A stretch of DNA of 64,000 bases, taken from an uncultured Spirochaetales bacterium (GTDB lineage Bacteria; Spirochaetota; Spirochaetia; JABEVK01). The notes below the pieces were generated by a model. The model was not told the origin of the DNA, ran no database searches, and was given only the letters and a program-made list of their open reading frames with translations. Shown here one piece after another: positions 27,997-54,073 of this stretch. The position numbers and the translations under genes are program-made. The DNA lies in NCBI GenBank assembly GCA_964475005.1, contig CAYYUZ010000002.1, positions 9,272 through 73,271 of the forward strand, in the 5' to 3' direction. How positions within the stretch are numbered: position 1 is the stretch's first letter; each line of letters begins with the position of its first letter.

Positions 27997-28077
27997 AAGT
28001 CCTAACCTATATTGGATTTGAAAAAAAACGGCCCGTTCCCCATGATGACGGAACGGGCCGCTAAACTCAACTGTCGA

Positions 28078-29022: not shown

Positions 29023-29110
29023 AATGAACCTCCATTGTTTTTTTACAGAACGTGAAGACGCCTGTAATTCCCAAAATCTTCGATCCACTTTCGGTATCTG
29101 TCAAGCACGA

Positions 29111-29140
29111 TTTCATAAGAAACTATATTGCTTTCATATG
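29111..29140. promoter_or_regulatory. direct repeat TTTCATAAG-N12-TTTCATATG upstream of the CUT2 ABC operon
   Basis: Two TTTCATA half-sites 21 bp apart. The motif CATATGAAAGCAA is also present upstream of GRE activase 2 (49340..49371). Confidence 0.35.
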
Positions 29141-31995: not shown

Positions 31996-32017
31996 GCCTC
32001 ATGGTATACTAGGAACC

Positions 32018-36071: not shown

Positions 36072-37912
36072 TTTCGAGTATCGAGTCGTTCTTGACACGA
36101 GCCAAAGCGGGTAGCCCGGTCTTCATCACCGAAGTCCGGCGAACCTTCGAAGCACTTCCGCGGGATCAGAGGTTTCGTCTGGGCGTCAACTTGACCCTGC
36201 CGGACCGCACGGTGCGCTGTTTTAGGATCACGCTACCAACGTTTGCCGTCGACAGCCAGCCGGATCCGCAGCGGCTCTTTGCCGAAGAGTACTTTCTTTC
36301 CGAAATGTACAACCGGATCTCGGCTCTGGGGGCCAGAGACCTCGAGTTTCGGACCGAGGAGGGACTGCCCGAAGCGGTTTGGCTGCACCAACGCTTTGAA
36401 GCCGCCTTCGGTCTGGCACAGAGGCGAAAGGCCCGACGGGGCTACGGCCGCGCCGTCAACGTTGTCGAGCGGATGATCGATTCTTTGGAACACACAACCA
36501 ATTCACGAATGTCGTGCCGGTTCACCCTCGGTCGTTTGGAGGAGGTTACTCAGGTGTCCCGTGCGCACAGTGGTGGAGTTCTCGCTCTGGCCGACCGAGC
36601 GCTGCGAGGGGTGGCACGACGCACCCTTTTAGGCATCGATGTGGGCGGAAGCGACATCAAACTGGCGTTGTCGATCGACGGCAGGCTGGCCGGCCTCAAG
36701 GAATACGACTGGTTCCCCGCTCAATTCACTCGCATCGCCTCGTTGACCGACCCCATCGAAGCTCTGGTAAGGCTCATGGCCTGGAAGGCTGTCGCATTGG
36801 GTGCCGCTGATGGAAGACCCGACCCAGCCCTCGATGCGGTTCTAGACCCGGCCTTTGCACTCAAAGCGGACAACGCCACCCTGAATCGAGTCTTGGAACT
36901 GGCCGCACCGCTTGTAGAAAGCCGCGACACAGCGTTCAAGCTCGACGGCATTGGACTCTCGTTTCCCGATGTCGTGGTCAAAGACAAGATTGTCGGCGGC
37001 GAGGTCTACAAGACCCGCGGCATCCGCGACAACCCTTCACTCGACTACGAGGCCGAGTTCCGCTCCCTGACCGAACTTGACACGCGTTTGCGGCGGTTGG
37101 TGAAGGACGGGGCCCCAGTGGTCACGGTGAACGACGGACCGATGGCCGCCTTCACGGCGCTGGTCGAAGGAAGTCTTGCCGATCCGAGCGGCGTCGAGGA
37201 CGGCATTTTTGCCCATACTCTCGGAACCGAACTCGGTACCGGCTGGGTGACCGAAAACGGCAAGATTCCTGACATCCCCCTCGAGGTCTACAACTTCATC
37301 ATCGACCTGGGCTCGTACCCCGAAAGGGAGTTCGACTGCGATGATCCCCGGAGTGTGAAGAACTTCAACACCGACCTTCCGGGCACCCTGCAGAAGTACA
37401 CAAGCCAGAGCGGCGCGTTCCGCCTGGCTCTCAAGCATTTCCCTGTCGAGCGTCCGGACTTGCTGAGAGAAATCTTCAAGAAAGGCTTCGTTGTGCCTGG
37501 TCCCGGTGACACTCTGCGAATTCCCTCGGAACCTCAAGATCAGCGCAAGCCGTTCCTCGAATACCTGATGGCCCTTCCTGATCGTGACGGGCAGGCTTCA
37601 GTGAACCGGATCTTTCGTGAGATCGGTGAGTTCCTCGCGGTAGCCACAGAGGAATGCAACCAGATTTTGCAACCCGCGGCTTCGCCTCGCATCCTTTTTG
37701 GACGCATGGTCAAGAACCCCTCGTGTTTTCGCTTGATGCGGGAGGGGGCGCAGTCGTTCGATCCGAAGATCACCCTCGGTCAGGCGGCCGACGACATGGC
37801 GATGTCAAAACTGATGCGCGAATTGAAGGAGGACCCCCGTCACACTGTGGCTCAATTCGCCCAGGCCGTTGGCGCGGTTCACTACGTTGCCAGCCGTTTT
37901 CAAGGCGCGTGA
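36068..37912 (+). CDS. uncharacterised ASKHA-superfamily (sugar-kinase/HgdC/ROK-like fold) protein with about 200-aa N-terminal extension
   Basis: Phosphate-1-like GIDVGGSDIKLAL near residue 215 and glycine-rich FAHTLGTELGTGWV later. ATGA overlap with the activase stop. Confidence 0.6.
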   Translation: MISSIESFLTRAKAGSPVFITEVRRTFEALPRDQRFRLGVNLTLPDRTVRCFRITLPTFAVDSQPDPQRLFAEEYFLSEMYNRISALGARDLEFRTEEGLPEAVWLHQRFEAAFGLAQRRKARRGYGRAVNVVERMIDSLEHTTNSRMSCRFTLGRLEEVTQVSRAHSGGVLALADRALRGVARRTLLGIDVGGSDIKLALSIDGRLAGLKEYDWFPAQFTRIASLTDPIEALVRLMAWKAVALGAADGRPDPALDAVLDPAFALKADNATLNRVLELAAPLVESRDTAFKLDGIGLSFPDVVVKDKIVGGEVYKTRGIRDNPSLDYEAEFRSLTELDTRLRRLVKDGAPVVTVNDGPMAAFTALVEGSLADPSGVEDGIFAHTLGTELGTGWVTENGKIPDIPLEVYNFIIDLGSYPEREFDCDDPRSVKNFNTDLPGTLQKYTSQSGAFRLALKHFPVERPDLLREIFKKGFVVPGPGDTLRIPSEPQDQRKPFLEYLMALPDRDGQASVNRIFREIGEFLAVATEECNQILQPAASPRILFGRMVKNPSCFRLMREGAQSFDPKITLGQAADDMAMSKLMRELKEDPRHTVAQFAQAVGAVHYVASRFQGA

Positions 37913-37965: not shown

Positions 37966-38706
37966 ATGACCAAGCGCCTTGACCAAATTCTGAAGATCCT
38001 CTCAGAACAGCACAAAGTCTCGGTGATTGAACTTTCGGAAGACCTGAAGGTTTCTCCGGCCACCATTCGACAAGATTTGACAGTGCTTGAGCAGGAAGGC
38101 CTACTTGTCCGCAACCATGGCGGGGCCGAGCTCAGGGAATCGGACGATCTGGCCCATCGCATGGCGATCAACTACGAAGACAAACTGAAGATCGCCCACA
38201 AGGCGGTAGAACTTGTCGATGAAGGCGATACAATCTTTGTCGAGTCCGGGTCAACCAACGCAATCTTCGTGAAGGAGCTGACGGCCGCCAAGCGGGTGAC
38301 CATCATCACGTCCAACGCCTTCATCGCCCGCAAGGTCGACCAATCCAGGGGTGGAAGCGTGATCTTGATCGGCGGCGTCTTTCAGAGGGAAAGCGAAAGC
38401 ATCGTCGGCAATATGGCCAAGGACAACATCGACCAGGTCAACTTTAACCGGGCCTTTTTGGGAGTCGACGGGTTCACCCCCGAAACCGGGTTCACCGGCC
38501 GCGACATGATGCGCGCCGAGATCGTCAACTACATCGTTTCCAAGGCCCGCGAAGTCATCATCCTCACCGATTCTTCGAAGTTCGGGCAAATCCACCTGTC
38601 TCGCTGTTGCCGGCTCGAAGACGTCGACCGCATCATCACCGACGGCCGCCTCTCGGAAAAGTACCGGGAGTTGGTGTCGGCAAAAGTTGACTTGATGCTG
38701 GTGTAG
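37966..38706 (+). CDS. DeoR family transcriptional regulator
   Basis: N-terminal DeoR HTH (RLDQILKILSEQHKVSVIELSEDLKVSPATIRQDLTVLE) and C-terminal sugar-phosphate-binding domain. Confidence 0.85.
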   Translation: MTKRLDQILKILSEQHKVSVIELSEDLKVSPATIRQDLTVLEQEGLLVRNHGGAELRESDDLAHRMAINYEDKLKIAHKAVELVDEGDTIFVESGSTNAIFVKELTAAKRVTIITSNAFIARKVDQSRGGSVILIGGVFQRESESIVGNMAKDNIDQVNFNRAFLGVDGFTPETGFTGRDMMRAEIVNYIVSKAREVIILTDSSKFGQIHLSRCCRLEDVDRIITDGRLSEKYRELVSAKVDLMLV

Positions 38707-40767: not shown

Positions 40768-41892
40768 CTAATAATCCGCCACGGGCACCCAGCGCTGGTC
40801 GAGCGCAGAAGCGTAGGCCGCGTCCATCACGAGGTTGTTGCGCAAACCATCCTCGATGCCGGGGCTGGGGGGTGTGCGTTCGATGACGGATTTCAGGAAC
40901 TGGTACTGGTTTTCCGCGTGCGTTCTCTCCCAGCCGAGGATGGCCCTGGCGGGCGGCACAATGGCTCCCTCGTAGGTTTGAATCGTTTCAAGTCGCGTCC
41001 AGCCCGCCTCTCCGGATTTTCGCGTGGCGTCGAACCAGTACAGCCAGTTGGCGTCCATCAAGTCGAAGCGAAACGCCCCCTTGGAGCCCTCCACGATCAA
41101 ACGCAGATCGTCGGCCGAACCTGTGGCAAAACGCGAAACCGTCAGCGTGCCCGTGGCCCCGTTCTTCATCGTCGCCTGAATCCAAGCGGCGTCGTCAACG
41201 TCAACGGGTCCGGTCTCCGGGGCTCCTTTGAAGAGCGGTCGCTGGGTGATGTAGGTCTTGGTCGTGGCCGAGACCTCGGCAAATTCGCCGACAAGGAAGC
41301 GGACCAAGTCGATGATGTGCGAGCCGAGATCCATGATTGCCCCGCCCCCGGAACTTTCGCGCTTCATCCGCCAACTGAGCGGCCGTGAAGCGTCCTGGTA
41401 GCCTGTGTGCAGGTACTCGGCGTGAAAGCGGTAAATCTCCCCAAGGGCCCCCGACTCGACGAGCCTGCGGGCCTTTTGGATGGCAGGCACAAACCTGTAG
41501 TTGAAGGTCATGCCAAGAGTCCCTGTCGACGAGGCCGCGAGGGCCGCGAGTTCGCGGGCCTCCTTTCCTGTCAATGCCAACGGCTTCTCACAATAGATGC
41601 TCTTCCCGGCCCGCAACGTGGCAAAAACCGCCTCCTTGTGGGCGTCGTTGGGGAGCACGCAGTCGACGACGTGGACCTCAGGGTCGTTCACCATTTCCTG
41701 AAGGTTGGTGTACGCCTTTGTGAAACCCCCGTCGGCAGCGGCTGCCTGAGCACTCTTCTGGGAGCGCGTACACACGGCCGCCAGACGGTAGCGGGGAAAA
41801 CTCGGGTAGTAACTGGGAATGCTTCTGTAGGCCAAAGTGTGGAGCTTGCCGATGCCCCCGTAGCCCGCCAGGCCAATACCAAGTGTTGTCAT
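40768..41892 (-). CDS. Gfo/Idh/MocA family NAD(P)-dependent oxidoreductase
   Basis: N-terminal Rossmann fold LGIGLAGYGGIGKLH and characteristic Gfo/Idh/MocA layout (EKPLALT...). Confidence 0.85.
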   Translation of the reverse strand: MTTLGIGLAGYGGIGKLHTLAYRSIPSYYPSFPRYRLAAVCTRSQKSAQAAAADGGFTKAYTNLQEMVNDPEVHVVDCVLPNDAHKEAVFATLRAGKSIYCEKPLALTGKEARELAALAASSTGTLGMTFNYRFVPAIQKARRLVESGALGEIYRFHAEYLHTGYQDASRPLSWRMKRESSGGGAIMDLGSHIIDLVRFLVGEFAEVSATTKTYITQRPLFKGAPETGPVDVDDAAWIQATMKNGATGTLTVSRFATGSADDLRLIVEGSKGAFRFDLMDANWLYWFDATRKSGEAGWTRLETIQTYEGAIVPPARAILGWERTHAENQYQFLKSVIERTPPSPGIEDGLRNNLVMDAAYASALDQRWVPVADY

Positions 41893-41901
41893 GGGAGTTC
41901 C

Positions 41902-42696
41902 TTAGACCAGACCGGACGCATTCCGGTACTTTGCCGAGGCTTCATCCATGGTTGCCTTCAATTCCTTCACGGCCCGGGCGATGTCGCCGGCCCCAGGCTC
42001 AAAACGGCCTTTCGGACCCTTCATAAGCGGCGAGGAGAATTCGCCAACGGTCATGCCGGCCGCGATGAACTCACCGACGTTCTTTTTGTTTAGGCCGCCG
42101 TCTTCCATCACGTCGAGGTCGCCCTCGCGACCAGCGGCGACCACCATCGCGTGGAGCCGACGGATGTTGTCGAGCATGATGGGGTCCATGGTGTGGGGGC
42201 TGGCCGCGCCCGACAAGGGTTTCCAGAACGGGGCCTTGCTCTCGTACTCGATGATATCCACAAAAGGGATGTATTGTTCAAAGGAGACGAGGGGGGTTCC
42301 CTGCCAGGCCCAGACTCCCACCTTCATCCCTAAAGTTTCCTTAACCATAAGGACCTGCTGCATGAGCATTTCGCCAGTCGTTTCAATGGGAAGACTAACA
42401 AGGTCGGCACCGAGGTCCTTCAATTGACGCAAAAGGTCGAAATTGGGTCTCATCATCTGAAGCTGAACTTCGATCTCAAGCTTGGTGTGCCGTCTGATTC
42501 CTTCCAAGATGTCGATTCCGCCGCGGGGAGCCGAGAAGTCCATGTACTTGCCGTCGCGCATTTCAATGTGGATCCAGTCCGCGCCGCCGGCTTCAAGTTC
42601 CTTGACCGTGTCGGCAAGATTTCCGTAGTCGGCCCAGAACAGCCCAGCCGCAATCTTGGCGTGTTTCCCCACTTTTCCAATCCTAGAATCGCCCAT
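41902..42696 (-). CDS. ribulose-phosphate 3-epimerase family protein (divergent, RPE/allulose-6-P epimerase-like TIM barrel)
   Basis: KIAAGLFWADYGNLADTVKELEAGGADWIHIEMRDGKY parallels the RPE N-terminus; C-terminal EDGGLN motif. ATG 42696 with GGAGG RBS. Confidence 0.65.
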   Translation of the reverse strand: MGDSRIGKVGKHAKIAAGLFWADYGNLADTVKELEAGGADWIHIEMRDGKYMDFSAPRGGIDILEGIRRHTKLEIEVQLQMMRPNFDLLRQLKDLGADLVSLPIETTGEMLMQQVLMVKETLGMKVGVWAWQGTPLVSFEQYIPFVDIIEYESKAPFWKPLSGAASPHTMDPIMLDNIRRLHAMVVAAGREGDLDVMEDGGLNKKNVGEFIAAGMTVGEFSSPLMKGPKGRFEPGAGDIARAVKELKATMDEASAKYRNASGLV

Positions 42697-42839
42697 CCCA
42701 GAGCCTCCAATGCGCCAAAGGCTAATCCGAAGCAGGGACGCTGTCAAGCAAAATGTTCGTTTATTCAGATATACGAAAGCTATTTCATTTCACTTGAAGT
42801 CATGATATTCTTCATTTGTCGACATTTGGAGGGCAATCG

Positions 42840-43799
42840 ATGAGTTCACTTCTTTGTGGAGTAGACCTGGGAGGCACCAAACTCAGCGTGGGATTGGTGA
42901 AAGAAACCGGTGAAGTTCTAGACCAGGTGACGGTCTACGATCACAGCAAGAAGGCGCCAGACCTTATCTTGGAGGAGATCGCTAACCTTGTGCGGCAGCT
43001 GCTTGCCAACCATGGACTGGGCGAAAAGGACCTGCGCGGCATCGGTGTGGCCACCGCGGGTCACCTCAGGTATCGCGACGGAGTTCTGATTACAATGTCG
43101 AACCTGGAAGGCTTCCGCCAGTATCCCATCCGCGACAAAATGGCAGCCCATTTTTCGGTGCCCATCGAAGTCGACAACGACGCCAACGCGCAGGCCTACG
43201 CCGAGTACAAGTTTGGGGCCGGCCGGGGCTACCAGGACATGATCTTCATGACCCTCAGCACCCAGATCGGCGCCGGTATCGTTTTGGGGGGCCAGCTGTT
43301 TCGGGGAATGACGGGGACCGCGGGAGAAATCGGCCACACCATTGTCGACCCCCACAGCGACCTCGTCTGCCCCTGCGGCAACCGGGGCTGCCTGATCGCC
43401 GTGGCTTCGGGCGTTTCGCTTCCCGCGATTGTTACCAAAAAGCTGAGCTCGGGGTTGGTTTCCAAAAGGATTTCGCTGGAGACTCTCGCCTCGACGGTGA
43501 TCGACGGCAACTTTATCCGCGAAGGATTGGCCCAAGGCGATCCGCTATGCCAAAGCGTGGTCGCCGATTACGCCGGGTCCATAGGAATCGGCATCTACAA
43601 CCTGTTCCAGATCTTCAACCCTGAAGCCGTAGTTCTTGGCGGCGGCTTGACCCAGTGGGGTGCGCCGCTTTTTGAGGGAATTCGCAACCGGGTCCGAGAA
43701 CTGGCCCGCGACATGATGTTCGATCCGATGGCCATCCTTGAGGGGACAGTCGCCAACTCAGGGCTGGTCGGGGCGGCGTCTCTGGTGTCCAAAAAATGA
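42840..43799 (+). CDS. ROK family sugar kinase (glucokinase / N-acetylglucosamine kinase-like)
   Basis: LLCGVDLGGTKLSVGLV and ROK zinc motif CPCGNRGCLIAVASG. GGAGGG RBS before ATG 42840. Confidence 0.85.
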   Translation: MSSLLCGVDLGGTKLSVGLVKETGEVLDQVTVYDHSKKAPDLILEEIANLVRQLLANHGLGEKDLRGIGVATAGHLRYRDGVLITMSNLEGFRQYPIRDKMAAHFSVPIEVDNDANAQAYAEYKFGAGRGYQDMIFMTLSTQIGAGIVLGGQLFRGMTGTAGEIGHTIVDPHSDLVCPCGNRGCLIAVASGVSLPAIVTKKLSSGLVSKRISLETLASTVIDGNFIREGLAQGDPLCQSVVADYAGSIGIGIYNLFQIFNPEAVVLGGGLTQWGAPLFEGIRNRVRELARDMMFDPMAILEGTVANSGLVGAASLVSKK

Positions 43800-45277
43800 A
43801 CCTGCGTTTCGACATCGTCATTGTGGGCTCGGGTCTCGGTGGCTCGGCGGCCGCCAAGGTTCTGCAGGAGACAGGGCGGTCCATCCTTATCCTTGAACGG
43901 GGCGACTACGTCAAACAGGAAAAGGCGAATTGGGATGTCATCGAAGTCTCGGTCAAACGGCGCTACGACTCTCCAGAGAAATGGATCGACGGTAACGGGA
44001 AGGAATTCAGCCCACGCACCTACTACAACGTGGGGGGAAGCACCAAGTTCTACGGAGGAACGGCGCTGAGGTTCCGGGAATCGGACTTTGCGGCCCGGAC
44101 TCTGGGGGAAGGAAGGACGGTGGCGTGGCCGTTTTCCTACGATGAGCTGAGGCCTTGGTACGATCAGGCCGAGAGACTCCTTGAGGTTCACGGCCAAACC
44201 GGCGAGGACCCCACAGAGCCGCCGCGGGGTCCCTTTCCCTTCCCTCCCCTCGAGCAAGAGCCCGTTATCGCCACGCTGGCCGAGCGGTTGCGAAGTCAAG
44301 GCCTCCACCCCATCCATTTGCCTATCGCCGTCGACCAAGGGGGCAAGGGTCGTTGCATCAAGGGCAGTCCTTGCGACGGGTTTCCTTGCCTGTACCGAGC
44401 CAAGGGCGACGCGGAAAACCGCCTTTTGCGCCCCCTGCTCTTAAAGAAACCCGCCAACGTCACGTTGTGGACCAACGCCCTGGTCGAACGGCTCGAAACT
44501 GGCCCGAGCGGTGCGGTCACTTCGGTCCTGGTGGTTCGAAACGGTGAACGGGTCGAGGTGGAAGGCGGTGTCTTTATCCTATCGGCGGGTGCAGTGAATT
44601 CGGCAGCCCTTCTGCTGAAATCCAAGAGCCCTCGGCACCCCAATGGCCTAGCCAACGGCTCCGATCAGGTGGGGCGGAATTTCATGTCGCACAACAATAC
44701 GGTTCTGCTGGCTCTCTCGCCCTGGCGCAAGAATCCGACGGAGTTTCAGAAGACTCTGACCATTCACGACTTCTACGAGTGGGGGACGATTCAATGCCGA
44801 GGCAAGGTCAAGCCGGAAATGCTGCAGAGCAAGAACGCCTGGGCGCTTCGAACCTTTCGCAAGGCCATTGCGGCCCGAAGCGTGGACTTTTGGGTGATGT
44901 CGGAGGACCTTCCCGACCCTTCCAACCGAGTGACCGTGGACGACGAGGGGCGAATCCACCTGACCCGAAAGGCCACCAACCTCGCGGCGCATCGCGCCTT
45001 GGTCACAAGGGCCAAGAGCATGCTGGCGAAAGCCGGCCTTCCTCTGTGCTTTGTCGACGAGCGCGGCATCAACGCCATCCAGCACCAGTGCGGAACAGTC
45101 CGCATGGGCGACGATCCTCGTACCTCGGTGCTCGACCCGTGGTGCCGAAGCCATGAAGTCGAGAACCTCTACGTGATCGACGCAGGCTTCTTTCCTTCTT
45201 CTGCGGCGGTCAATCCGGCCCTGACGGTCCTAGCCCAGGCCCTGAGGGCGGCCGAGCACCTGAAAAGGTCGTTCTAG
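43796..45277 (+). CDS. GMC family FAD-dependent oxidoreductase (second copy)
   Basis: FDIVIVGSGLGGSAAAKVL Rossmann fold, 493 aa. Start overlaps the ROK stop. Confidence 0.8.
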   Translation: MNLRFDIVIVGSGLGGSAAAKVLQETGRSILILERGDYVKQEKANWDVIEVSVKRRYDSPEKWIDGNGKEFSPRTYYNVGGSTKFYGGTALRFRESDFAARTLGEGRTVAWPFSYDELRPWYDQAERLLEVHGQTGEDPTEPPRGPFPFPPLEQEPVIATLAERLRSQGLHPIHLPIAVDQGGKGRCIKGSPCDGFPCLYRAKGDAENRLLRPLLLKKPANVTLWTNALVERLETGPSGAVTSVLVVRNGERVEVEGGVFILSAGAVNSAALLLKSKSPRHPNGLANGSDQVGRNFMSHNNTVLLALSPWRKNPTEFQKTLTIHDFYEWGTIQCRGKVKPEMLQSKNAWALRTFRKAIAARSVDFWVMSEDLPDPSNRVTVDDEGRIHLTRKATNLAAHRALVTRAKSMLAKAGLPLCFVDERGINAIQHQCGTVRMGDDPRTSVLDPWCRSHEVENLYVIDAGFFPSSAAVNPALTVLAQALRAAEHLKRSF

Positions 45278-46020
45278 ACCTTCAAAACGATGATTCCTGA
45301 CTCCTGCAAGAATCGAAAGTCGGGCTCGGGGATGCCAGTGTCGGTGATGACCGTGTGGATGCTTGTGTTCTCGCCGCAAATGGGCGCCAAATGTGCAGCC
45401 CCAAACTTGCTCGAATCGGTCAGAATGTAGCTCGCGGCTCCCTTGGAAAGGATGGCCTGAGTGATCTCGGCGCGAAGCGAATCGTTGAGGGTGAAGCCCG
45501 TTGTCTGGGTGAAACCTGTGACTCCGAGAAAACACTTGGAAAACGTGAGTTCTGCTAGGGCGTTTTTCGTCACCGAGCCGACAAAGCTTTCGCTACTCTC
45601 TTGGTAGAAACCGCCCAAGACAATGACGCGGGTACCGCTGGCACGAAACAGCCGCGCGATAAAGAGGTTCGACGTGATGACCGTGAGGTTGCGCAGATCC
45701 TTGATCCTCTCGGCAAGGATGGACACCGTTGAACCGGCCTCAAGGAGGATGGTATCACCGGGTTCGATGAACGTTGCCGCCGCTCGGGCGATGCGAGACT
45801 TGTCTTCGAACCGGGAGCCCATGCGGAAGGGAATCTCGTCACCCTCAAACGCCCGCGCCTCGCCGTGAAACCTGCGGACCAACATCTTCTTTTCAAGCGC
45901 CGAGAGAGTCTTGCGGATCGTGACCCCCGAGACGCCAAGCTCGGCGGCGAGATCCAGAACCTTCTTCGGTCCGCCCCGCAACACAAGGTCGGCCACTTGG
46001 GATTCCAGGTCGCGTTTCAT
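45274..46020 (-). CDS. DeoR family transcriptional regulator (second copy)
   Basis: DeoR HTH LVLRGGPKKVLDLAAELGVSGVTIRKTLSALEKKMLV. ATG 46020 overlaps the GRE2 stop (ATGA). Confidence 0.85.
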   Translation of the reverse strand: MKRDLESQVADLVLRGGPKKVLDLAAELGVSGVTIRKTLSALEKKMLVRRFHGEARAFEGDEIPFRMGSRFEDKSRIARAAATFIEPGDTILLEAGSTVSILAERIKDLRNLTVITSNLFIARLFRASGTRVIVLGGFYQESSESFVGSVTKNALAELTFSKCFLGVTGFTQTTGFTLNDSLRAEITQAILSKGAASYILTDSSKFGAAHLAPICGENTSIHTVITDTGIPEPDFRFLQESGIIVLKV

Positions 46021-48407
46021 CAGAGTCTGTGTTCCGTCCGCGCAATGATGTCGTCTTGAGTGTCCGAAGCCAGGTCTCGGAAAAAGGCCGAGTACCCGGC
46101 CACACGAACAACAAGATCGCGGTACTTCTCGGGGTCCTTCTTGGCCGCGATCAGGGTCTCGCGCGAAACGATGTTGTACTGCACGTGCCACCCCCCCAAG
46201 TCGTCGAAGAAGGTCCGGATCAGCGCTTCAAGTTTCAATTTGTCGTTGGGCGTTTCAAGAGACTTGGGCGAGAGTTTTTGGTTGAGCAGGACACCGCCGA
46301 AGATCCGCCCAGCGGGAAGTTTGCCGATCGACTTGAAGACCGCGGTGGGTCCCAGAAGATCGGTGCCCGACGACGGGGAGCAGCCTTCGGCCAGAGGAGT
46401 TCCTGCATGACGGCCGTCGGCGGTGGCCCCGACTTCTGAACCCGACGGAACGTTGGAGGAAATGCTCGACGTTCCGGGGTAGTAGCCGCCGCCGATGGGT
46501 CCCCTCCCCCAACGCGTGTTGTGAAGTTTCTCGATCTGGTCGGCAAAGTACCCGTAGGCCTCCACTACTAAGGCGTCGACTTCGTCGTTGTCATTGCCGA
46601 ACTTGGGGGCCCCGTTGAGAAGCCGTTGCCTGAGGATCTCCCCCTGGGGACCCGCAAAATCGTTGGCCAGTGCGTCGAGCAGTTCCTGACGGCCGATGAC
46701 GCCTTCTTCGAAGACAAGTTTCTTCACCGCGGCCAGGGCGTTGCCCAAATTGGCGACGCCAACCTGCAGGCCTGAAACCCAGTCGTAAACCGCGCCCCCC
46801 TCCTTGAGGTGCTTTCCGCGGGCGATACAGTCGTCGGTGAAGACAGAGCACAGAACATCGGGAACAAGCTCTTCGAGCGCCGTGTCGACCGCGACATCGA
46901 TGGCAACCGTGGCCCGGGCGTAGAACTGCACCTGTTTCTTCCAGGCTTCCATCAACGCCCCGAAGTCGGCAAAGTCAGCCAGTTTCCCCGTTCCCGCCAG
47001 GAAGGTCATTCCCGTCTCGGGATCACGGCCATCCTGGAGCGCGAGATTGAAAACCCTCATGAAGTTCAGAAAGCTCATGCCGGTGGTGCGGTAGCCCCAC
47101 TTGCCGGGAACCGCCACCTCGATACAACCGATGGCCGAGTAGTCGCGGGCGTCTTCCAAACTGACCCCCAAGCGGAGCATGCCGGGAATGACCACCTCGT
47201 CGTTGTTGAAGGCCGGCATGCCGAAGCCCTTCTCAATCACGCGTATTGAGGCGGCCAGGAACTCCGCGCTCGTGCCCGAATGGTACCGGATCGAGAGGTT
47301 GGGCTGAGTCAGCTTCATCTCACCGACAGACTCCAAGATGAGGAAACTGAGGGCATTGGTGGCGTCGTGGCCGTCAAGCCCGACTCCGCCGATCGTCACG
47401 TTTTGGTACAGAGGCCCGCCGGCCGACGTTCGTGTGTGCGACGCCGATCGAACCTTCTTGATCGAAGTCAGTTTGATCCACGTCCAGCAGAGTCCCTGTT
47501 TGGCGGTTTCGCGGTCGAGAGTTCCGGCCTTCAAGTCGCGGTCGTAGTACGGCCCCAAGTACTGGTCCAGACGCCCGAACGACAAAGAATGCCCGTTGGA
47601 CTCGATCTGCAGAACAATCTGCAAAAAGACGCAAAGCTGGAGCGCTTCAAAGAACGTTTGCGGAGGCTTGGTGGAGATGACCTCGCAGGTCTGAGCGATC
47701 TTCTTCAGCTCCTCAGCCCTTTGGGGATTGTTCTCGGCTACAGCCTGCTGACGCGCTAGCTCGGCGTACCTCTCGATATACCTCGAGAGCCCGCTGAGCG
47801 CATCGAGCATCGCAAGGTACAACTGACGCTTTTTGAGGTCGAAGAACGACGCGGGGTCAAGTTCGGCCAACGCCTTTTCAACCTTGCGCCTAGTCCCTCC
47901 TACCCCAAACTCCAAAGCCTTGCGGAGGTTGATCGCCACGTGCCCGTCTCCCGAGGTCATGTTCCCCTCGGCCTTGATGATCTTGGTGGCGTGAAGTTCC
48001 TCAAGCTCAGGAGACAACAAGGCGTGGGCACGCTCCTGCAGAGTTTTGCCCCGCCAGAACTGACAAATCTCCTTGAGTTCGGCCTTCTCTTGAGGCGTCC
48101 CGAGGTAGGCCTCCGCTGGACGTTTGTCGATGGTGTCGATTTCGCTGGCAAGCCAACCCACAGAGTATTCGGGAAAGATCGGCGCCGCCTTGGGTCGGGA
48201 GGAGTGGTTGCCGACGATGGTCTCGTCAGGCTCAATGAAGATGACCATCTCTTCAAGGGTTTTTCGCAGAGCGAGTCCCCTCCTCCGGACAATCGGCAAG
48301 GCCTCGTTCTCACGGTAGACACGGGTGTAGATGCGCGCCCGCTCCAGGCAGAGGCTTGCCTTTGTCGACAACATGCGGTCTTTGGCAAGCATCAGCTTCT
48401 CGCTCAT
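46020..48407 (-). CDS. glycyl radical enzyme, PFL2/eliminase clade (795 aa, second copy)
   Basis: Glycine-radical motif RVAGYSAFFRDL. Active-site Cys-Ile-Glu (SAIGCIEVAVPG). Confidence 0.9.
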   Translation of the reverse strand: MSEKLMLAKDRMLSTKASLCLERARIYTRVYRENEALPIVRRRGLALRKTLEEMVIFIEPDETIVGNHSSRPKAAPIFPEYSVGWLASEIDTIDKRPAEAYLGTPQEKAELKEICQFWRGKTLQERAHALLSPELEELHATKIIKAEGNMTSGDGHVAINLRKALEFGVGGTRRKVEKALAELDPASFFDLKKRQLYLAMLDALSGLSRYIERYAELARQQAVAENNPQRAEELKKIAQTCEVISTKPPQTFFEALQLCVFLQIVLQIESNGHSLSFGRLDQYLGPYYDRDLKAGTLDRETAKQGLCWTWIKLTSIKKVRSASHTRTSAGGPLYQNVTIGGVGLDGHDATNALSFLILESVGEMKLTQPNLSIRYHSGTSAEFLAASIRVIEKGFGMPAFNNDEVVIPGMLRLGVSLEDARDYSAIGCIEVAVPGKWGYRTTGMSFLNFMRVFNLALQDGRDPETGMTFLAGTGKLADFADFGALMEAWKKQVQFYARATVAIDVAVDTALEELVPDVLCSVFTDDCIARGKHLKEGGAVYDWVSGLQVGVANLGNALAAVKKLVFEEGVIGRQELLDALANDFAGPQGEILRQRLLNGAPKFGNDNDEVDALVVEAYGYFADQIEKLHNTRWGRGPIGGGYYPGTSSISSNVPSGSEVGATADGRHAGTPLAEGCSPSSGTDLLGPTAVFKSIGKLPAGRIFGGVLLNQKLSPKSLETPNDKLKLEALIRTFFDDLGGWHVQYNIVSRETLIAAKKDPEKYRDLVVRVAGYSAFFRDLASDTQDDIIARTEHRL

Positions 48408-48411
48408 CGTC

Positions 48412-49308
48412 TCATCCTCCCAGGGTAACGGCGAATCCCCATTCGGCGGCCGCCGCTCGCCATCGGTCCAGAGTGACTTGATTCAGTGGTTTGCGGGTGT
48501 AGGGGTTAGCACGGCCCAACTGGGCATACTTTCCGGCCGCCAACTCGTGATACGGCAAAATGTCCACCCGCGCGGGCTTCAAGGTTCGCTCCAGGCCGGC
48601 AATGAGTCCAAACAACCGTTCTCTGTCGTCTTCACCATCGTTGAAGTCGGGAATCAGCGGTATACGGTAGGTCACCCGTGGGGCCGACCGCGAAACTGTG
48701 CGAAGGTTATCAAGGATAGGCGACAGCCGTCCCGAAGTCTGTTCCAGAAACTTCGTTTCGTCGATGTGCTTGACGTCAACAAGCCATTCGATGGGATACG
48801 GCAGCAGCACCGCCAACGCCGCGGGCGGGGCCGCGAGGCAGGTCTCGATCGCGACGTCGATGCCAGCTTCGATCAACTGTTCCAGGCACGGCACCAGGAA
48901 CTCAGCCTGGTCGAGCGGTTCTCCGCCCGAAAACGTCACACCGCCGCCGCTCTTGGCAAAAAAGAGGCGATCTTTGAGGACTTCGGCGATCAACGCGGAG
49001 GAATCGACCTCACGGCCTGCGATTCGGATCGCCTGGGTGGGGCAAACCTTCCCCAATCCGGGCGGCACGGGTCGAGTTCTGTCCGGAACAATCATGCCGG
49101 CCGTTTCCTGCATCGCACCGCCAAACTGCGGCTCAAGGCACGAGCGGCAACGAATACAGCGTTTGGCGTCAAAGAGGATCTCGGCGTCCCTCTTCTGGCT
49201 CTCGGGGTTGGAGCACCATTGACACCGCAGCGAACACCCTTTCAAGAACACGACGGTCCGGATTCCCGGCCCGTCGTGAGTTGAATAGCGCTGAACATCA
49301 AAGATCAT
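48412..49308 (-). CDS. glycyl radical enzyme activating enzyme with ferredoxin-like insertion
   Basis: CSLRCQWCSNPE radical-SAM cluster motif, plus an extra Cys cluster (CIRCRSC...CPTQAI) between the SAM cluster and GGGVTFSGGEP. Confidence 0.9.
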   Translation of the reverse strand: MIFDVQRYSTHDGPGIRTVVFLKGCSLRCQWCSNPESQKRDAEILFDAKRCIRCRSCLEPQFGGAMQETAGMIVPDRTRPVPPGLGKVCPTQAIRIAGREVDSSALIAEVLKDRLFFAKSGGGVTFSGGEPLDQAEFLVPCLEQLIEAGIDVAIETCLAAPPAALAVLLPYPIEWLVDVKHIDETKFLEQTSGRLSPILDNLRTVSRSAPRVTYRIPLIPDFNDGEDDRERLFGLIAGLERTLKPARVDILPYHELAAGKYAQLGRANPYTRKPLNQVTLDRWRAAAAEWGFAVTLGG

Positions 49309-49339
49309 GGGTGCCTCACGTCTGAAGAATAGACGTTAA

Positions 49340-49371
49340 CTTTCATATTGTCAATATTTTGCTTTCATATG
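49340..49371. promoter_or_regulatory. direct repeat CTTTCATATT-N12-CTTTCATATG upstream of GRE activase 2
   Basis: Two half-sites 22 bp apart. Shares the 13-mer TTGCTTTCATATG with 29128..29140. Preceded by a leader inverted repeat ACGTCT-N7-AGACGT (49318..49336). Confidence 0.35.
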
Positions 49372-49410
49372 AATGCGATTATGGCACTTTTCGATGTTAT
49401 TTCGGTCGGA

Positions 49411-50508
49411 TCACCGGGGCACCCGCTTTTGAACAAAGATCCCCAAGAGAAGGAACGCCGCGGGCAGCGCAAGCATTCCCCAATCCCAGCCCCACGCAAG
49501 GACGGCGGGGCCCGTGAAAGGATAGCTGGCCTTGAACCGATCAATGAAAAGCATCTCCCAAAAGGGAAAGAGGGACCACAGCAACCAAACGGTCAGCAAC
49601 AGTGTTCCGGCAAAACAGCCCAAGGCCAGCAGCCCTTCAACGAACGAACGCGGTACCGCTGGCAAAAACCAGAGCCGCGAAAGACGGTGTTGCCACACAA
49701 GTCCCAACAGGCCGCAGGCGATGGCCAAGATGACCACGTCGCGCAGGATGAACAAGGGGACGGCCGCGCCAAGGACTCGGGCTCGAAACTCCTTGCTGGC
49801 AACCTTCCAGCTCTTCAGCTGGACGCCAAAGCCCAGAAACGCTTCCCCATGCTCCTTGATCCACCGGTCGGGGTCGAGCCCTCCCGCGAGGCGGACGGCG
49901 AAACTTGTCACTCGTGCGCGGGCACCAAGAAGGCTCTGGGCTGTTTCTAAATCCAACAGCACCGTATCGGGACCCAAGAACACCGAGGTTCGTTCCATCG
50001 AACCCACGACGGCCGTACCCGAACTCCAGGTCCCGTCTGTCGAAGTCAGCCCGGCGGTTTCACTGGGAAACAGGAAGGCTTGATCCTCCCACGACTTGGG
50101 AATAAGCAGCCCCGAAAGCGGTCCCGAAATTCCATGAAGGATGCGGCTGTGAAACGAAGTCACCTTATCTTCTTGGGCAAAACTGAACGCCCTAACAGGC
50201 ACGGTCTTCGACTTTCCCTGGGGGTTGGTCACCTTCATACTGAACTCAAGCCGCGCCGAGGCCGCCACGACTCCGGGTATCCCTTCGATCAGCGACCGGA
50301 GGCGGAAGTACTGGTCGAGCCCGCCTTGGGTCGATTCGACAAGAACCTGCCCGGTTTCGAGGATTTGAATACCCTGGTCGAAGCCTTGGTCGAACCCTCT
50401 GCCAAGCCCGACGGCCCAAACCACTCCGCCAAGTAGCAGACCCAGAACGAAAAAGGTCGTCCCATGCAGGACCTTCCAGCTCTCTAGAAGCTCATCGAGC
50501 ATCGTCAC
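49411..50508 (-). CDS. hypothetical membrane protein (N-terminal TM, central extracytoplasmic region, C-terminal TM bundle; possibly FtsX-like)
   Basis: Hydropathy pattern only; no ATPase partner nearby. Confidence 0.45.
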   Translation of the reverse strand: MTMLDELLESWKVLHGTTFFVLGLLLGGVVWAVGLGRGFDQGFDQGIQILETGQVLVESTQGGLDQYFRLRSLIEGIPGVVAASARLEFSMKVTNPQGKSKTVPVRAFSFAQEDKVTSFHSRILHGISGPLSGLLIPKSWEDQAFLFPSETAGLTSTDGTWSSGTAVVGSMERTSVFLGPDTVLLDLETAQSLLGARARVTSFAVRLAGGLDPDRWIKEHGEAFLGFGVQLKSWKVASKEFRARVLGAAVPLFILRDVVILAIACGLLGLVWQHRLSRLWFLPAVPRSFVEGLLALGCFAGTLLLTVWLLWSLFPFWEMLFIDRFKASYPFTGPAVLAWGWDWGMLALPAAFLLLGIFVQKRVPR

Positions 50509-50698
50509 TCCCTTCGTGGACCTTTTCGGGGAACAAGGGTTCGCCCTCGTCGAGTCCGACCTCGAGGAATTCCGGCGCCCAACGGTTCTTGAGCTTGTAG
50601 CTCCGCCGAATCACTTTTTGCCGCCGGGTCTCCTTGCTGTCAACAAAGACCGCCATGACCGTGCGACCAAAACCAAACAGTCCAACGCGGATACTCAT
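50492..50698 (-). CDS. small hypothetical protein (about 68 aa)
   Basis: ATG 50698 lies 4 nt from the stop of the large OmpA-domain gene and overlaps the next gene by 17 nt. No motif recognised. Confidence 0.35.
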   Translation of the reverse strand: MSIRVGLFGFGRTVMAVFVDSKETRRQKVIRRSYKLKNRWAPEFLEVGLDEGEPLFPEKVHEGSDDAR

Positions 50699-53229
50699 TT
50701 TGACTTCTCCAAATAGAACTCTACCCGTCGGTTCTTCCAACGGTTTTCGAGGTCGGTGTTGGGGACTAGGGGGCGTAGAGCCCCGAAGCCTTGCACTGTA
50801 AAGCGCGCGTCATCGACACCCAGGAGAACCAACGCCATCTTGACTTCTTGGGCCCGATCCTGCGACAGAGGAAGCAGTTGGGTGGTCTGCTCCCATTCCG
50901 AGGTCTTGGCATCGGTCGAAAACTCGCTGACGGCGTACCCTTCCAGCCCGATCTTGTACCCCGGCAGACGGTTGAGAACCGAGGCCAACCTTTGCAACAC
51001 GAAGACATTCTTAGACAACAGAGCTTGAGGCAATTTGAACACGTCCGAGCTGTAGCCGGAAAACTGAATCGAATTGATGACGATTTTGTAGCGACCGTCG
51101 GCCAGCTTGTCGACAAGGATGTCGACCGTGACCACATCCTGCTTGCTCCCCTGCCGCCCGGCGGTGTCATCGACTTCAAAGATCACCTCGTACTGTTCCC
51201 CGGACTCCACGTAGTCGCCAGAGTCTGACTTTCCATCCCAAACCACGTGAGCCGGCGGTGAACCGTTCCCCGAGAACAAACGGAAGCCCTTCCCGCGAGG
51301 ATCCAGAATCTGGAGACTCCACGAAGCCAAAGGAGAGGCGCCCTCCTTGGCCTTGAGGTCGATGGTCAGAAACTGCGGTCCGTCGACATTCTTGGGGGCA
51401 AATACAAGCGAAGAAAGGTGAATGTCGGCGTTGGGTGCAGTGGTATCGAGGAACTTGGAGTCGACCGTCACGTCGGAAGAGGCCCTCGACACGGTGCCGT
51501 TGGCGTAGGTGACTTCCACCGCCACCCGATAGGCACCGTCGGGAACCGGGCGGGTGTCGGTACCCGAACCGTCCCAGTCCCAAAAGGTCAGAAGCGATTC
51601 GGCCTGGCGGTTGGCGACGACCGTGCCATTCGAACCTGTCACTTTGTAGACGGTCTTGTCGATGGAATCCGCCACACTCAAAACCGGCGTAACGCGAACG
51701 ATTCCCGCCTGACCTCGATTGGGAACAACCACGGTGCGCGAAAGGTCCAGCCCGACCTTCATGGGCCGGTTGTCTTTACGCACCGAGATACGGGTGAATC
51801 CCAGAACGCCCGCGCGGTTCTTCGCCGACGCCTGCAGAACGAGGGTTCCGTCCGGCAGTGGTTTTCCCTGTTCATCGAGTCCCTGAAACTCGACCGAACC
51901 GTTGCCAGAATCGCCCAAATCGTAGTGCCTGAGTAGTTGGCCCTTGGTCGTCAGAACGTCAAGACCCCAGGGAATTCCCGGTTCACCTTTCAGATCCACC
52001 GTGATTCCGGCGCGGCCCGTCCCGCCAAACACCATCGCCGACGCAGAAAGAACCGCTTGGGGCGGGGTCAGGACGAGGTCAAACGAGAATGGGTTCGAAA
52101 CCCCCGTGTTGCCGTTGTCGTAGGAAATAGTCAAGGTCGCGGCGTAGTGCCCCTCTGGGAGAGGCAGACCCGAGGTCGTGTTCCCAGCAAACTCGATCTC
52201 CTTGGGGACGGGGGCCGGACCCGAGCGGGTCCATCGGGCGAGGGTCGGATTGGTGGCGTCAGACACCGTGACGCGCCACTGGGTCAGCCCCTCCTGAATT
52301 TCCACCTCGGGTTTGAAGAGGATCGAGGTCGGCGCGCCAACGGCCTTCGGAGAAAACTGGGTTGTCTCTGAGCTCAACACGGGAATCCCCGACCGTTCAC
52401 TCACCGTCAGAGCCTGAGTCAGAGTGGTTGAGGCCGAAGCCCCTGCCCGGTTGCGTCCCGTGAGGGAGTAGAAATAAACCCCATCGGGAACCACGGTACC
52501 GGAGTCGTCCCGCCCGTCCCAGGAGAAAGGCGGCGGCGCCAAGTCATCCGCCACTGACTCGCTCGTATTCTCCCAGAGGTAGGTTCGAACTATCCTTCCT
52601 GCTGAGTCAATGAAACGTCCTTCCCAGTGGCTCTCGTGACTCCCCGACTGTTCAATCGATACGGTAGGCCGGTTCCCCAAGGGAGCAAAGATCGGCTGTG
52701 CAACGCGGATGAAATAGACGGCAACCTTGGCGTTCTTGATGGTGGCGTTGAAGGGAGGAGTTTGCGCCCGCCCGCCCGCGCTGTCGACGACGGTAATCTG
52801 ATACGTGTAGTTTCCATCGGGAACGAACATCCCGTCTTGGGGATTCTTAGCACCGTGGTAGCGCCCGTCCCAGGTCAGTTCCTTCGGGATTTCGACCTGA
52901 GGACGAGGGCCGAGGTTGAACAAATCGCCAAAGAACCCTCGGCTGCGAGTCTCCAGCCGGGACTCCTCGGAAACCAGGTGGCCCGAGGAGTCGAAAACGG
53001 AAAAGGTCCACGATTTGATGACCTGCCCCTTGGCCGTGAACGTCAGCGACGAGAAGGGCAGGACAAGGGTCTGATTCTTGGCCGTCGGATCTTGAGGAGC
53101 CAGGTACTGGCGCGGTTGGGCATCCATCTGAATGACGGGAGCGGCCTCAGCCTGCCCACTGGCCCAAAGAGACGGACTCCCCATTCCGAGAAAGGTCAAA
53201 ACCAAACCAAAAAGCAGGCGGCCAAACAT
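50695..53229 (-). CDS. OmpA-family surface protein with multiple FlgD-Ig-like repeat modules (844 aa)
   Basis: Signal peptide MFGRLLFGLVLTFLGMGSPSLWA. At least five repeats of the form VPDG-x-Y-x-Y...AG (VPDGNYTYQITVVDSAGG, VPDGVYFYSLTGRNRAG, LPEGHYAATLTISYDNGN, LPDGTLVLQASAKNRAG, VPDGAYRVAVEVTYANGT). C-terminal OmpA-like peptidoglycan-binding domain with the NRRVEF signature. Confidence 0.8.
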   Translation of the reverse strand: MFGRLLFGLVLTFLGMGSPSLWASGQAEAAPVIQMDAQPRQYLAPQDPTAKNQTLVLPFSSLTFTAKGQVIKSWTFSVFDSSGHLVSEESRLETRSRGFFGDLFNLGPRPQVEIPKELTWDGRYHGAKNPQDGMFVPDGNYTYQITVVDSAGGRAQTPPFNATIKNAKVAVYFIRVAQPIFAPLGNRPTVSIEQSGSHESHWEGRFIDSAGRIVRTYLWENTSESVADDLAPPPFSWDGRDDSGTVVPDGVYFYSLTGRNRAGASASTTLTQALTVSERSGIPVLSSETTQFSPKAVGAPTSILFKPEVEIQEGLTQWRVTVSDATNPTLARWTRSGPAPVPKEIEFAGNTTSGLPLPEGHYAATLTISYDNGNTGVSNPFSFDLVLTPPQAVLSASAMVFGGTGRAGITVDLKGEPGIPWGLDVLTTKGQLLRHYDLGDSGNGSVEFQGLDEQGKPLPDGTLVLQASAKNRAGVLGFTRISVRKDNRPMKVGLDLSRTVVVPNRGQAGIVRVTPVLSVADSIDKTVYKVTGSNGTVVANRQAESLLTFWDWDGSGTDTRPVPDGAYRVAVEVTYANGTVSRASSDVTVDSKFLDTTAPNADIHLSSLVFAPKNVDGPQFLTIDLKAKEGASPLASWSLQILDPRGKGFRLFSGNGSPPAHVVWDGKSDSGDYVESGEQYEVIFEVDDTAGRQGSKQDVVTVDILVDKLADGRYKIVINSIQFSGYSSDVFKLPQALLSKNVFVLQRLASVLNRLPGYKIGLEGYAVSEFSTDAKTSEWEQTTQLLPLSQDRAQEVKMALVLLGVDDARFTVQGFGALRPLVPNTDLENRWKNRRVEFYLEKSK

Positions 53230-53327
53230 CACAACCCCTTGGTATTCCTTAGCAACTAGGCTAAGCTTTTTATTAAGCGAGTTTCGAGATTGAATATTAT
53301 TATCAGGCATTTTTTTTAATGAGTCAA

Positions 53328-53355
53328 TTGACTTTTGAATTAATGTTGATATGAT
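53328..53355 (+). promoter_or_regulatory. sigma70-like promoter TTGACT-N16-TATGAT in an AT-rich island
   Basis: -35 at 53328-53333 and -10 at 53350-53355, about 25 nt upstream of the response-regulator ATG (53381, GAGGTG RBS). The region 53230..53380 is about 30% GC against about 60% genome-wide. Confidence 0.5.
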
Positions 53356-53380
53356 GAGTTCGAGCAAAGCCGAGGTGACC

Positions 53381-54073
53381 ATGAAACTGCTCTTCGTGGA
53401 TGACGAGCCGAGGATTCAAGAAATCGTCAGGAACGGACTGGCGCAGGATGGGTTCGAGGTCGAGACCTTCTCAACGGCCGAAGAGGTCATGAGTGTCCTT
53501 CAAAACTCTCGCCCGTCCTACGACGCCTTCCTGCTGGACATTGTTCTTCCCGGACTCAGCGGCTTGGAACTCTGTCGATGGCTGAGAGAGACAGGGCATA
53601 AACAGGCCATCGTTATGTTGACGGCCAAGGGCCAGGTCGACGACAAGGTCGCCGGGCTCGACGCCGGTGCCGACGACTACCTGGCCAAACCGTTCGAGGT
53701 CGCAGAACTTCAAGCCCGATTCCGCGCTCTGTACCGGAAGATGCACGGGTATCCCAGGCCACCCTTGGTCGTGGGCGATCTGGTGATGGACCCCAATACC
53801 CAAAGGGTAACTCGGGGCGGCGTTGAACTCGGGCTGCCAAAAAAGGAAAAGGCGCTCCTTGAGTTCTTGATGAAAAATTCAAACCGGGTCGTCACCCGAT
53901 CCATGATCGCCAACGCCCTTTGGGACGAAGGTAGCGGACTCTATACAAATGTCATCGACGTCTTTATTGCCTACCTGAGAAAGAGGATAGACACTCCTTC
54001 CCGGCCCCGTCTGCTGCACACGGTTCGGGGCAAAGGATTCCGCCTTTCGATCAATCCCCTGTCGGACGAGTGA
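53381..54073 (+). CDS. OmpR family response regulator (receiver plus winged-helix)
   Basis: MKLLFVDDEPRIQEIV...DAFLLDIVLPGLSGLEL receiver. C-terminal winged helix (VVTRSMIANALWDE...RGKGFRL). Confidence 0.9.
   Translation: MKLLFVDDEPRIQEIVRNGLAQDGFEVETFSTAEEVMSVLQNSRPSYDAFLLDIVLPGLSGLELCRWLRETGHKQAIVMLTAKGQVDDKVAGLDAGADDYLAKPFEVAELQARFRALYRKMHGYPRPPLVVGDLVMDPNTQRVTRGGVELGLPKKEKALLEFLMKNSNRVVTRSMIANALWDEGSGLYTNVIDVFIAYLRKRIDTPSRPRLLHTVRGKGFRLSINPLSDE

Follow-up and report, generated by a model that had tools for sequence, protein, structure and literature searches.

We analyzed a 64,000-nucleotide stretch of DNA from an uncultured Spirochaetales bacterium (contig CAYYUZ010000002.1, positions 9,272 to 73,271; the whole stretch is hereafter called the window), in which three minus-strand genes at 45274-49308 encode an activase (AE2), a glycyl radical enzyme (GRE; here GRE2), and a DeoR-family regulator (DeoR2). 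Our data suggested, with a probability of roughly 0.78, that this operon serves anaerobic 1,5-anhydrohexitol catabolism by providing its radical ring-opening step, and that it is of the kind known from YbiY and YbiW of E. coli. The first-pass annotation had described the genes as an activase-GRE-DeoR module, and the open reading frames (ORFs) and domains agreed that the three genes are real and lie where that annotation had placed them. The operon is a well-delimited member of the YbiY/YbiW system at the level of orthologues, and not a new kind of system. YbiW is a 1,5-anhydroglucitol-6-phosphate C-O lyase with the catalytic residues Cys441 and Glu443, PflD is a 1,5-anhydromannitol-6-phosphate C-O lyase, and both enzymes give 1-deoxyfructose-6-phosphate, subsequently cleaved by an aldolase (PMC13450708, section 5.7, a 2026 review). 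The same pathway is summarized in PMC12441222, which cites Ma et al., JACS 2024.

GRE2 was placed in the glycyl radical enzyme superfamily by its Pfam domains (PFL-like, PF02901, E 1.6e-197; Gly_radical, PF01228, E 1.2e-30) and by the C-terminal glycine-radical motif VVRVAGYSAFF, which contains Gly771. Against the sequences of solved structures in the PDB, GRE2 scored 962 bits with YbiW (8ID7, 8YJN, and 6XS4), 575 bits with glycerol dehydratase, and 481 bits with PflD, so that YbiW is its closest characterized relative by a clear margin. A BLASTP alignment with YbiW of E. coli K-12 extended over the full length, with 55% identity over 802 residues, and Gly-Cys428-Ile-Glu430 of GRE2 aligned with Gly-Cys441-Ile-Glu443 of YbiW, showing that the catalytic Cys-x-Glu arrangement is present; the comparison of catalytic residues covered Cys441 and Glu443. 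We further aligned 201 YbiW-clade sequences with PflD-type sequences. GRE2 carried every motif of the YbiW clade, namely SGDxH, ESNGHS, PLYQNVTIGG, GFGMPAFNNDE, GCIE...GKWGYRxTGMSF, GTSSIS, GGVLLNQKL, and RVAGYSAFF, and ten of its motif windows were identical or nearly identical to the 201-sequence consensus, unlike those of PflD and of GRE1, the second GRE in the window. On this evidence GRE2 is predicted to be a 1,5-anhydroglucitol-6-phosphate C-O lyase.

The current database label, “formate C-acetyltransferase/glycerol dehydratase family”, points to other activities. A B12-independent glycerol or diol dehydratase would be consistent with the score of 921 bits to TIGR01774, which is a subfamily model only, and with the conservation in the alignment of His164, Ser282, and Tyr339 of glycerol dehydratase. 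We take the active-site set of that enzyme (1R8W) to be His164, Ser282, Tyr339, Cys433, Glu435, and Asp447; the His, Ser, Tyr, Cys, and Glu are conserved in GRE2, but the position of Asp447 is a Thr within a two-residue insertion that forms the YbiW-specific GKWGYRxTGMSF loop. In addition, where the dehydratase has the strand “GLYPSS”, GRE2 has “GTSSIS”, the score to glycerol dehydratase is far below that to YbiW, and the linked genes encode a sugar kinase, a sugar ATP-binding cassette (ABC) transporter, and a DeoR regulator but do not include microcompartment or propanediol/glycerol genes. We therefore regard a dehydratase as very improbable. Less probable still is a pyruvate formate-lyase (PFL; formate C-acetyltransferase), as which many source annotations name the homologues of GRE2 and with which the PFL-like Pfam domain would agree: GRE2 lacks the adjacent Cys-Cys pair and has the loop GCIE instead, it reached only 143 bits with TIGR01255 against a cutoff of 994, and its match to PFL structures (147 bits) was limited to the C-terminal 190 residues.

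The activase encoded beside GRE2 is likewise of the type expected for this system. AE2 contains Radical_SAM and Fer4_12 domains (Pfam) and matched the NCBIfam GRE-activase subfamily model TIGR02494 with 277.7 bits (cutoff, 174.35). The CX3CX2C motif of a dedicated radical S-adenosylmethionine activase is formed by C25, C29, and C32, which were invariant in our activase alignment (A1), and a ferredoxin-like insert contributes four further Cys residues (C51, C54, C57, and C89). AE2 is 39% identical to E. coli YbiY over its full length. The E. coli and spirochaete pairs have in common the activase placed directly upstream of the GRE with a gap of 4-5 nt, the GCIE loop, the clade motifs, and the RVAGYSAFF sequence around the radical glycine.

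By analogy with the family, AE2 would use S-adenosylmethionine and a reduced [4Fe-4S] cluster to generate a radical on Gly771 of GRE2. The radical would move to Cys428, which would abstract the hydrogen from C2 of 1,5-anhydroglucitol-6-phosphate; Glu430 would deprotonate the C2 hydroxyl group, the C1-O5 bond of the ring would break, and the Cys thiol would quench the keto radical to yield 1-deoxyfructose-6-phosphate, each of these steps having been shown for YbiW. An aldolase encoded outside the window would then produce glyceraldehyde-3-phosphate and hydroxyacetone. In E. coli, the substrate enters through the phosphotransferase system (PTS; PMC12441222), whereas conserved gene linkage suggests that the spirochaete substrate would be supplied by a ribose-type ABC transporter and a ROK-family kinase.

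To place the operon among its relatives, one genome per GTDB species was scanned, which gave 80 loci with GRE2 relatives of 57-74% identity from Spirochaetota, Bacteroidota, Victivallales, Clostridia, and Planctomycetota; four metagenomic loci brought the set to 84, in which genes were counted by tblastn. The activase gene stands directly upstream of the GRE gene in 79 of the 84 loci, which represent five phyla, and three more lie at contig edges. In E. coli K-12, ybiY and ybiW lie on one strand, with ybiY directly upstream and a gap of 5 nt between them. Because E. coli and 79/84 loci share the order seen in the window, the comparison indicates that the YbiY-YbiW family ancestrally has the activase first, and that this order is no particular trait of the locus. 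The first-pass annotation had pointed out that the order is opposite to that of module 1, the GRE1-AE1 pair encoded on the plus strand; this is accurate, although not a peculiarity of the locus.

A ROK kinase gene is the next same-strand gene after the GRE gene in 73 of the 84 loci, and all four genes AE-GRE-ROK-DeoR lie on one strand in 46. This usual operon (loci L008 and L019-L088, in Bacteroidota, Spirochaetota, Victivallales, Clostridia, and Planctomycetota) shares with the window an AE and a GRE that are 57-68% identical, a ROK kinase, and a DeoR regulator. In the window, in contrast, the ROK gene belongs to a ROK-GMC operon that lies on the other strand and converges on DeoR2. Only in the contigs of the organism itself (L002-L004) and in L090 was a DeoR gene observed to follow the GRE gene immediately on its strand; in L090 the GRE is 83% and the DeoR 71% identical, the gap is 10 nt, and the AE-GRE-DeoR2 triad sits in a different neighborhood. 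The close relatives L010 (74%) and L091 (81%) have no DeoR2; there, AE-GRE is followed by GMC and ROK genes on the other strand, by epimerase-like and GFO genes, and by a DeoR1-like gene. The coupling of the GRE to its regulator, which had been singled out as a special trait, is in this comparison a lineage-specific variant or local rearrangement of the common AE-GRE-ROK-DeoR operon.

The junctions of the three genes, whose coordinates are listed in Table 1, were read directly. Between the AE2 stop and the GRE2 ATG there is a gap of 4 nt, with a GGAGGA ribosome-binding site just upstream. The GRE2/DeoR2 junction reads ctc TGA TGA aac, in which the first TGA (46022..46020) is the GRE2 stop and the DeoR2 ATG occupies 46020..46018, giving an overlap of 1 nt (TGATG); a second in-frame TGA stands directly after the GRE2 stop. 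The tight coupling proposed earlier was thus retained, while the proposed 4-nt “ATGA” overlap was not, as that sequence arises from the DeoR2 ATG and the second in-frame TGA. A longer DeoR2 ORF starting at GTG 46191 was rejected, as it would overlap GRE2 by about 170 nt in another frame; it is also disfavored by the helix-turn-helix (HTH), which begins at residue 8 of the 248-residue form, and by relatives that are called at 248 residues. A hairpin followed by a T-run at 46101..46086, inside GRE2, was considered as an attenuator between GRE2 and DeoR2 and rejected, because it lies in the codons of the conserved VAGYSAFF motif and would be translated, and because the number of terminator-like hits (7) matched the expectation from shuffled sequences (5.8 ± 2.3). 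No RNA genes were found in the window by Rfam and tRNA scans. At the other end of DeoR2, its TAG stop interlocks with that of the convergent GMC gene in one CTAG (45274..45277); because this leaves no intergenic space for a terminator, the ROK-GMC and AE2-GRE2-DeoR2 transcripts must overlap or end within each other’s genes.

Table 1. Features of the window discussed in the text, with coordinates given in window positions.
Feature	Position	Strand	Description
AE2	48412..49308	-	298 aa; YbiY-type GRE activase (radical SAM)
GRE2	46020..48407	-	795 aa; YbiW-type GRE; key residues Cys428, Glu430, Gly771
DeoR2	45274..46020	-	248 aa; DeoR-family regulator, HTH and DeoRC sugar-phosphate sensor domain
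Sigma-70-like promoter	49326..49354	-	TTGACA, 17-nt spacer, TATTCT; upstream of AE2
Box 1, candidate operator	49362..49373	-	TTCATATGAAAG; contains palindrome TTCATATGAA; ends 7 nt upstream of -35
Box 2, candidate operator	49340..49348	-	ATATGAAAG; inside -35/-10 spacer
Further candidate box	42771..42779	+	ATACGAAAG; divergent intergenic region between ROK kinase and ribulose-phosphate-epimerase-like genes
ABC-transporter candidate box	29131..29139	-	ATATGAAAG; upstream of binding-protein gene
ROK-family sugar kinase	42840..43799	+	Motifs GVDLGGT, DNDAN, CPCGNRGC
GMC-family FAD oxidoreductase	43796..45277	+	Co-oriented with ROK gene, convergent on DeoR2
Second GMC FAD oxidoreductase	30433..31995	-	24% identical to the other GMC protein
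GFO/IDH/MocA dehydrogenase	40768..41892	-	Best NCBIfam match levoglucosan dehydrogenase, 256 bits (cutoff 650)
Ribulose-phosphate-3-epimerase-family protein	41902..42747	-	Family match
Ribose-type sugar ABC transporter	24543..29139	-	Pfam matches
ABC transporter, binding protein	28078..29088		
ABC transporter, ATPase	26497..27996		
ABC transporter, permease	25532..26500		
ABC transporter, permease	24540..25610		
AraC-family gene	31877..32848		Precedes GRE1
GRE1	32924..35308	+	PflD-type GRE of module 1
AE1	35271..36071	+	266-aa activase; overlaps GRE1 end
ROK-fold ORF	36068..37912	+	614 aa; after AE1, ATG overlaps AE1 stop
DeoR1	37966..38706	+	Module 1’s own DeoR gene, at module end
365-aa ORF	49411..50508	-	Upstream of AE2; no family match
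FlgD_ig/Big_13/OmpA protein	50695..53382	-	895 aa; upstream of AE2
GH31 glycosidase	11472..13958	-	With DUF5110; upstream of locus
GH3 glycosidase	20857..23142	-	Upstream of locus
Pyruvate phosphate dikinase	17474..20161	+	Upstream of locus

As listed in Table 1, a sigma-70-like promoter stands upstream of AE2, and it was the only such site on the coding (minus) strand between 44800 and 49700; the TTGAC of its -35 hexamer was invariant in an alignment of related AE promoters (A2). Two exact copies of ATATGAAAG, at 49370..49362 and 49348..49340, bracket the -35 hexamer and are 22 nt, or two helical turns, apart. The degenerate form ATAYGAAAG occurs five times in the window, against 0.30 expected, and none of 100 shuffled sequences reached five copies. 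Four of the five lie in promoter regions, two at AE2 and one each at the ABC transporter and the ROK/epimerase pair; the fifth is inside GRE1 and possibly there by chance. When one mismatch to ATATGAAAG was allowed, no significant enrichment was observed in the window (10 matches against 6.1 expected), so that enrichment is confined to the exact or Y-degenerate form. The layout TTTCAnATGAAA – 7 nt – TTGACA – 2 nt – ATGAAA aligned across 11 related AE promoters, the arrangement of box 1, TTGACA, and box 2 is also present in L090 and L091, and the ABC-transporter operon promoters of L005-L007 carry ATGAAAC/GTTTCAT palindromes. This pattern supports the interpretation of the boxes as a common operator, and it is plausible that the ATATGAAAG boxes at the AE2 promoter serve as one.

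The single promoter, the translational coupling, and the conserved boxes together make the co-transcription and autoregulation of AE2-GRE2-DeoR2, as suggested in the first-pass annotation, plausible. In such a scheme, DeoR2 would be produced from the operon’s own mRNA by translational coupling at TGATG, would repress the promoter through the two boxes around the -35 hexamer, and would be released by one of two sugar phosphates, the substrate or the product. DeoR2 has the architecture of the DeoR-family sugar-phosphate repressors, with an N-terminal HTH_DeoR domain (PF08220, 32.6 bits; cutoff, 21) and a DeoRC sensor domain (PF00455, 142 bits; cutoff, 31.8) in about 250 residues. No NCBIfam equivalog model was reached by DeoR2; its best matches, YciT, AgaR, SrlR, and GlpR, all remained under their cutoffs, the top one being YciT with 201 bits against 450.

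Three further genes lie upstream of AE2 on its strand: a 365-residue ORF with no family match, a small 68-residue ORF that is called in L002 and L003, and the gene of an 895-residue FlgD_ig/Big_13/OmpA protein. Because their linkage to AE2 was limited to the contigs L002 and L003 of the organism itself and was not seen in other relatives, they are probably unrelated to the module.

The window encodes a second DeoR regulator, DeoR1, at the end of module 1, which is 43% identical to DeoR2. Genes of the DeoR2 type (51-58% identity) were found only in Rectinemataceae- and Treponemataceae-like loci, where they are usually divergent from a ribose-type ABC transporter. Because of this distribution, and because the regulator of the usual operon is nearer DeoR1, DeoR2 is a lineage-specific paralogue, whose presence beside the lyase varies among close relatives.

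Several observations weigh against our assignment of the operon or parts of it. An identity of 55% to YbiW is no proof that the substrate is the same. In other phyla, the usual operon’s regulator resembles DeoR1 more closely (47-54% identity, about 240 bits) than DeoR2 (36-47%, about 150 bits), so that either DeoR1 or DeoR2 may control either module. The boxes are kept in relatives that lack a neighboring DeoR2 (L091 and the AraC-linked loci L007, L011, L016, and L018); an attempt to assign them to DeoR2 failed for this reason. The downstream genes of the E. coli pathway are also missing from the locus: ybiW has the aldolase gene fsaA and the phosphatase gene ybiV as neighbors, whereas the window has instead the linked ROK kinase, ABC transporter, and DeoR regulator, and E. 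coli FsaA, FsaB, YbiV, and GldA found no match in the 64-kb window (tblastn, E<1e-3). Pfam scans of essentially all large ORFs of the window also revealed no aldolase, transaldolase/Fsa, or PTS domain. The window therefore has no linked Fsa gene and PTS components of the E. coli type, although an aldolase elsewhere in the genome is possible; among the 84 related loci, a single one (L034) has an Fsa-like gene.

In view of the first of these points, GRE2 might be a YbiW-clade C-O lyase that acts on another anhydro- or deoxy-hexitol phosphate, either an epimer or a derivative made by the neighboring GMC, GFO/IDH/MocA, and epimerase-like enzymes. The identity to YbiW, which is no higher than 55%, would allow this; moreover, the locus lies amid oxidoreductases that are missing from the E. 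coli ybiW locus (two GMC and one GFO/IDH/MocA) and a ribulose-phosphate-epimerase-like protein, and related spirochaete loci have up to three GRE paralogues. However, the clade-wide motifs at the Cys loop and barrel strands are all identical to those of YbiW, and the AE-GRE-ROK-DeoR core occurs in many phyla without those oxidoreductases. We consider a different substrate rather unlikely, and favor 1,5-anhydroglucitol-6-phosphate.

The comparison with module 1 provided an internal reference. The first-pass annotation had asked for the pairwise identity of GRE1 and GRE2, as near-identity would indicate a recent, redundant duplication. The two proteins are 36% identical overall, and at this low value they are old paralogues and not products of a recent duplication. 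The difference of their Cys loops, GCIE in GRE2 (C428/E430) and GCVE in GRE1, was confirmed and discriminates the two clades. The N-terminal divergence was also real, identity being 18-28% over the N-terminal 200 residues and 34-47% beyond them; as a signal of substrate, however, it is uninformative, because GRE2 and its orthologue YbiW show the same gradient (39-41% versus 52-71%). GRE1 shares with a relative in L006 and with E. coli PflD another set of motifs (ESNASS, FAGFPxG, GCVEL, YTVSAHVP, and NGTLLNxKF), is 41% identical to PflD, and scored best with PflD structures (611 and 605 bits; glycerol dehydratase, 546 bits); its assignment to the PflD type is nevertheless softer than that of GRE2 to the YbiW type. 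Orthology with YbiW and PflD, which have two substrates and one product, 1-deoxyfructose-6-phosphate, supports the earlier proposal of a different substrate and fits a shared pathway.

E. coli PflD-PflC is the counterpart of module 1 and not of the AE2-GRE2 module: PflD, of the same superfamily and with the same product as the YbiW type, is only 36% identical to GRE2, has the motifs GCVE, ESNASS, and YTVSAHVP, and is encoded GRE-first in overlapping genes, pflD preceding pflC with an overlap of 35 nt. The adjoining regulator gene is yijO, whose product we take to be of the AraC type. Module 1 mirrors this layout with an AraC-family gene, then GRE1, then AE1, which overlaps the end of GRE1. AE1 is 34% identical to AE2 and lacks the ferredoxin-like Cys insert that is present in AE2, YbiY, PflC, and the L006 counterpart (306 residues, Fer4 domains).

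Directly after AE1 follows an ORF of 614 residues with no Pfam or NCBIfam match, even at E ≤ 10. Its homologues at E ≤ 1e-5 number 1220, of which the 120 best listed are unnamed or called “hypothetical protein”, and in some relatives it is fused to a GRE activase (P0126, 854 residues; P0127, 890 residues, corresponding to L091 17624..20296). Its AlphaFold model (pLDDT 93) matched best the folds of ROK-family sugar kinases (2QM1, E 3e-11, target-normalized TM of about 0.7). From the approximately 430-445 alignment columns we infer that the kinase fold would follow an extra N-terminal domain of some 170 residues and occupy roughly residues 170-614. The model suggests that this protein probably serves as the module 1 kinase and belongs to an undescribed family, and given this fold match, each module would contain lyase, activase, sugar kinase, and DeoR regulator genes.

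The other sugar genes of the window can be related to the same pathway. The ROK kinase beside the GMC gene corresponds, as judged from the related operons, to the kinase found between GRE and DeoR in most of them, and it is predicted to be a 1,5-anhydrohexitol 6-kinase. The ribose-type ABC transporter is the probable uptake system; it shares 70-83% identity with the transporter adjacent to DeoR2-like and YbiW-like genes in L005-L007. Linkage of the GMC gene next to DeoR2 with the module is syntenic in L002, L010, and L091, and the two GMC, GFO/IDH/MocA, and epimerase-family genes are syntenic with GRE modules in L010, L012, L013, L021, L022, L028-L030, and L091; the encoded enzymes may convert anhydro-sugars into one another in steps upstream of the lyases. 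A third GRE paralogue (811 and 836 residues) was observed by the same ribose-type ABC transporter in L005 (17161..18388) and L007 (1..1197), which suggests a larger family of anhydro-sugar GREs in the spirochaete lineage. The window also encodes HAD enzymes and several regulators around the two modules and, upstream of the locus, GH31 and GH3 glycosidases and a pyruvate phosphate dikinase. The GH31 family also includes alpha-1,4-glucan lyases, which make 1,5-anhydrofructose.

A wider interpretation, which we offer tentatively and hold to be possible rather than probable, is that the spirochaete split the AE-GRE-ROK-DeoR operon and recruited DeoR2 onto the lyase. With a TGAAA-box operator common to the promoters of AE2, the ABC transporter, and ROK, this would define a separate kinase-based (non-PTS) regulon for sugars of the 1,5-anhydroglucitol type, controlled independently of the PflD-type module, which would keep the ancestral-type DeoR1. 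If so, the locus would be a two-branch “anhydro-sugar island”, and its inducers and natural substrates might be formed from 1,5-anhydrofructose or from other anhydro-sugars on which the GMC and GFO enzymes act.

Taken together, these data correct the labels “formate C-acetyltransferase” and “glycerol dehydratase family” that databases give to GRE2 and hundreds of its environmental relatives, for which the ring opening of 1,5-anhydrohexitol-6-phosphates is the better-supported function. The boxes at the AE2 promoter provide a concrete candidate operator, and the related loci indicate that the pathway’s typical partners outside enterobacteria are a ROK kinase, an ABC transporter, and a DeoR regulator, and not a PTS.

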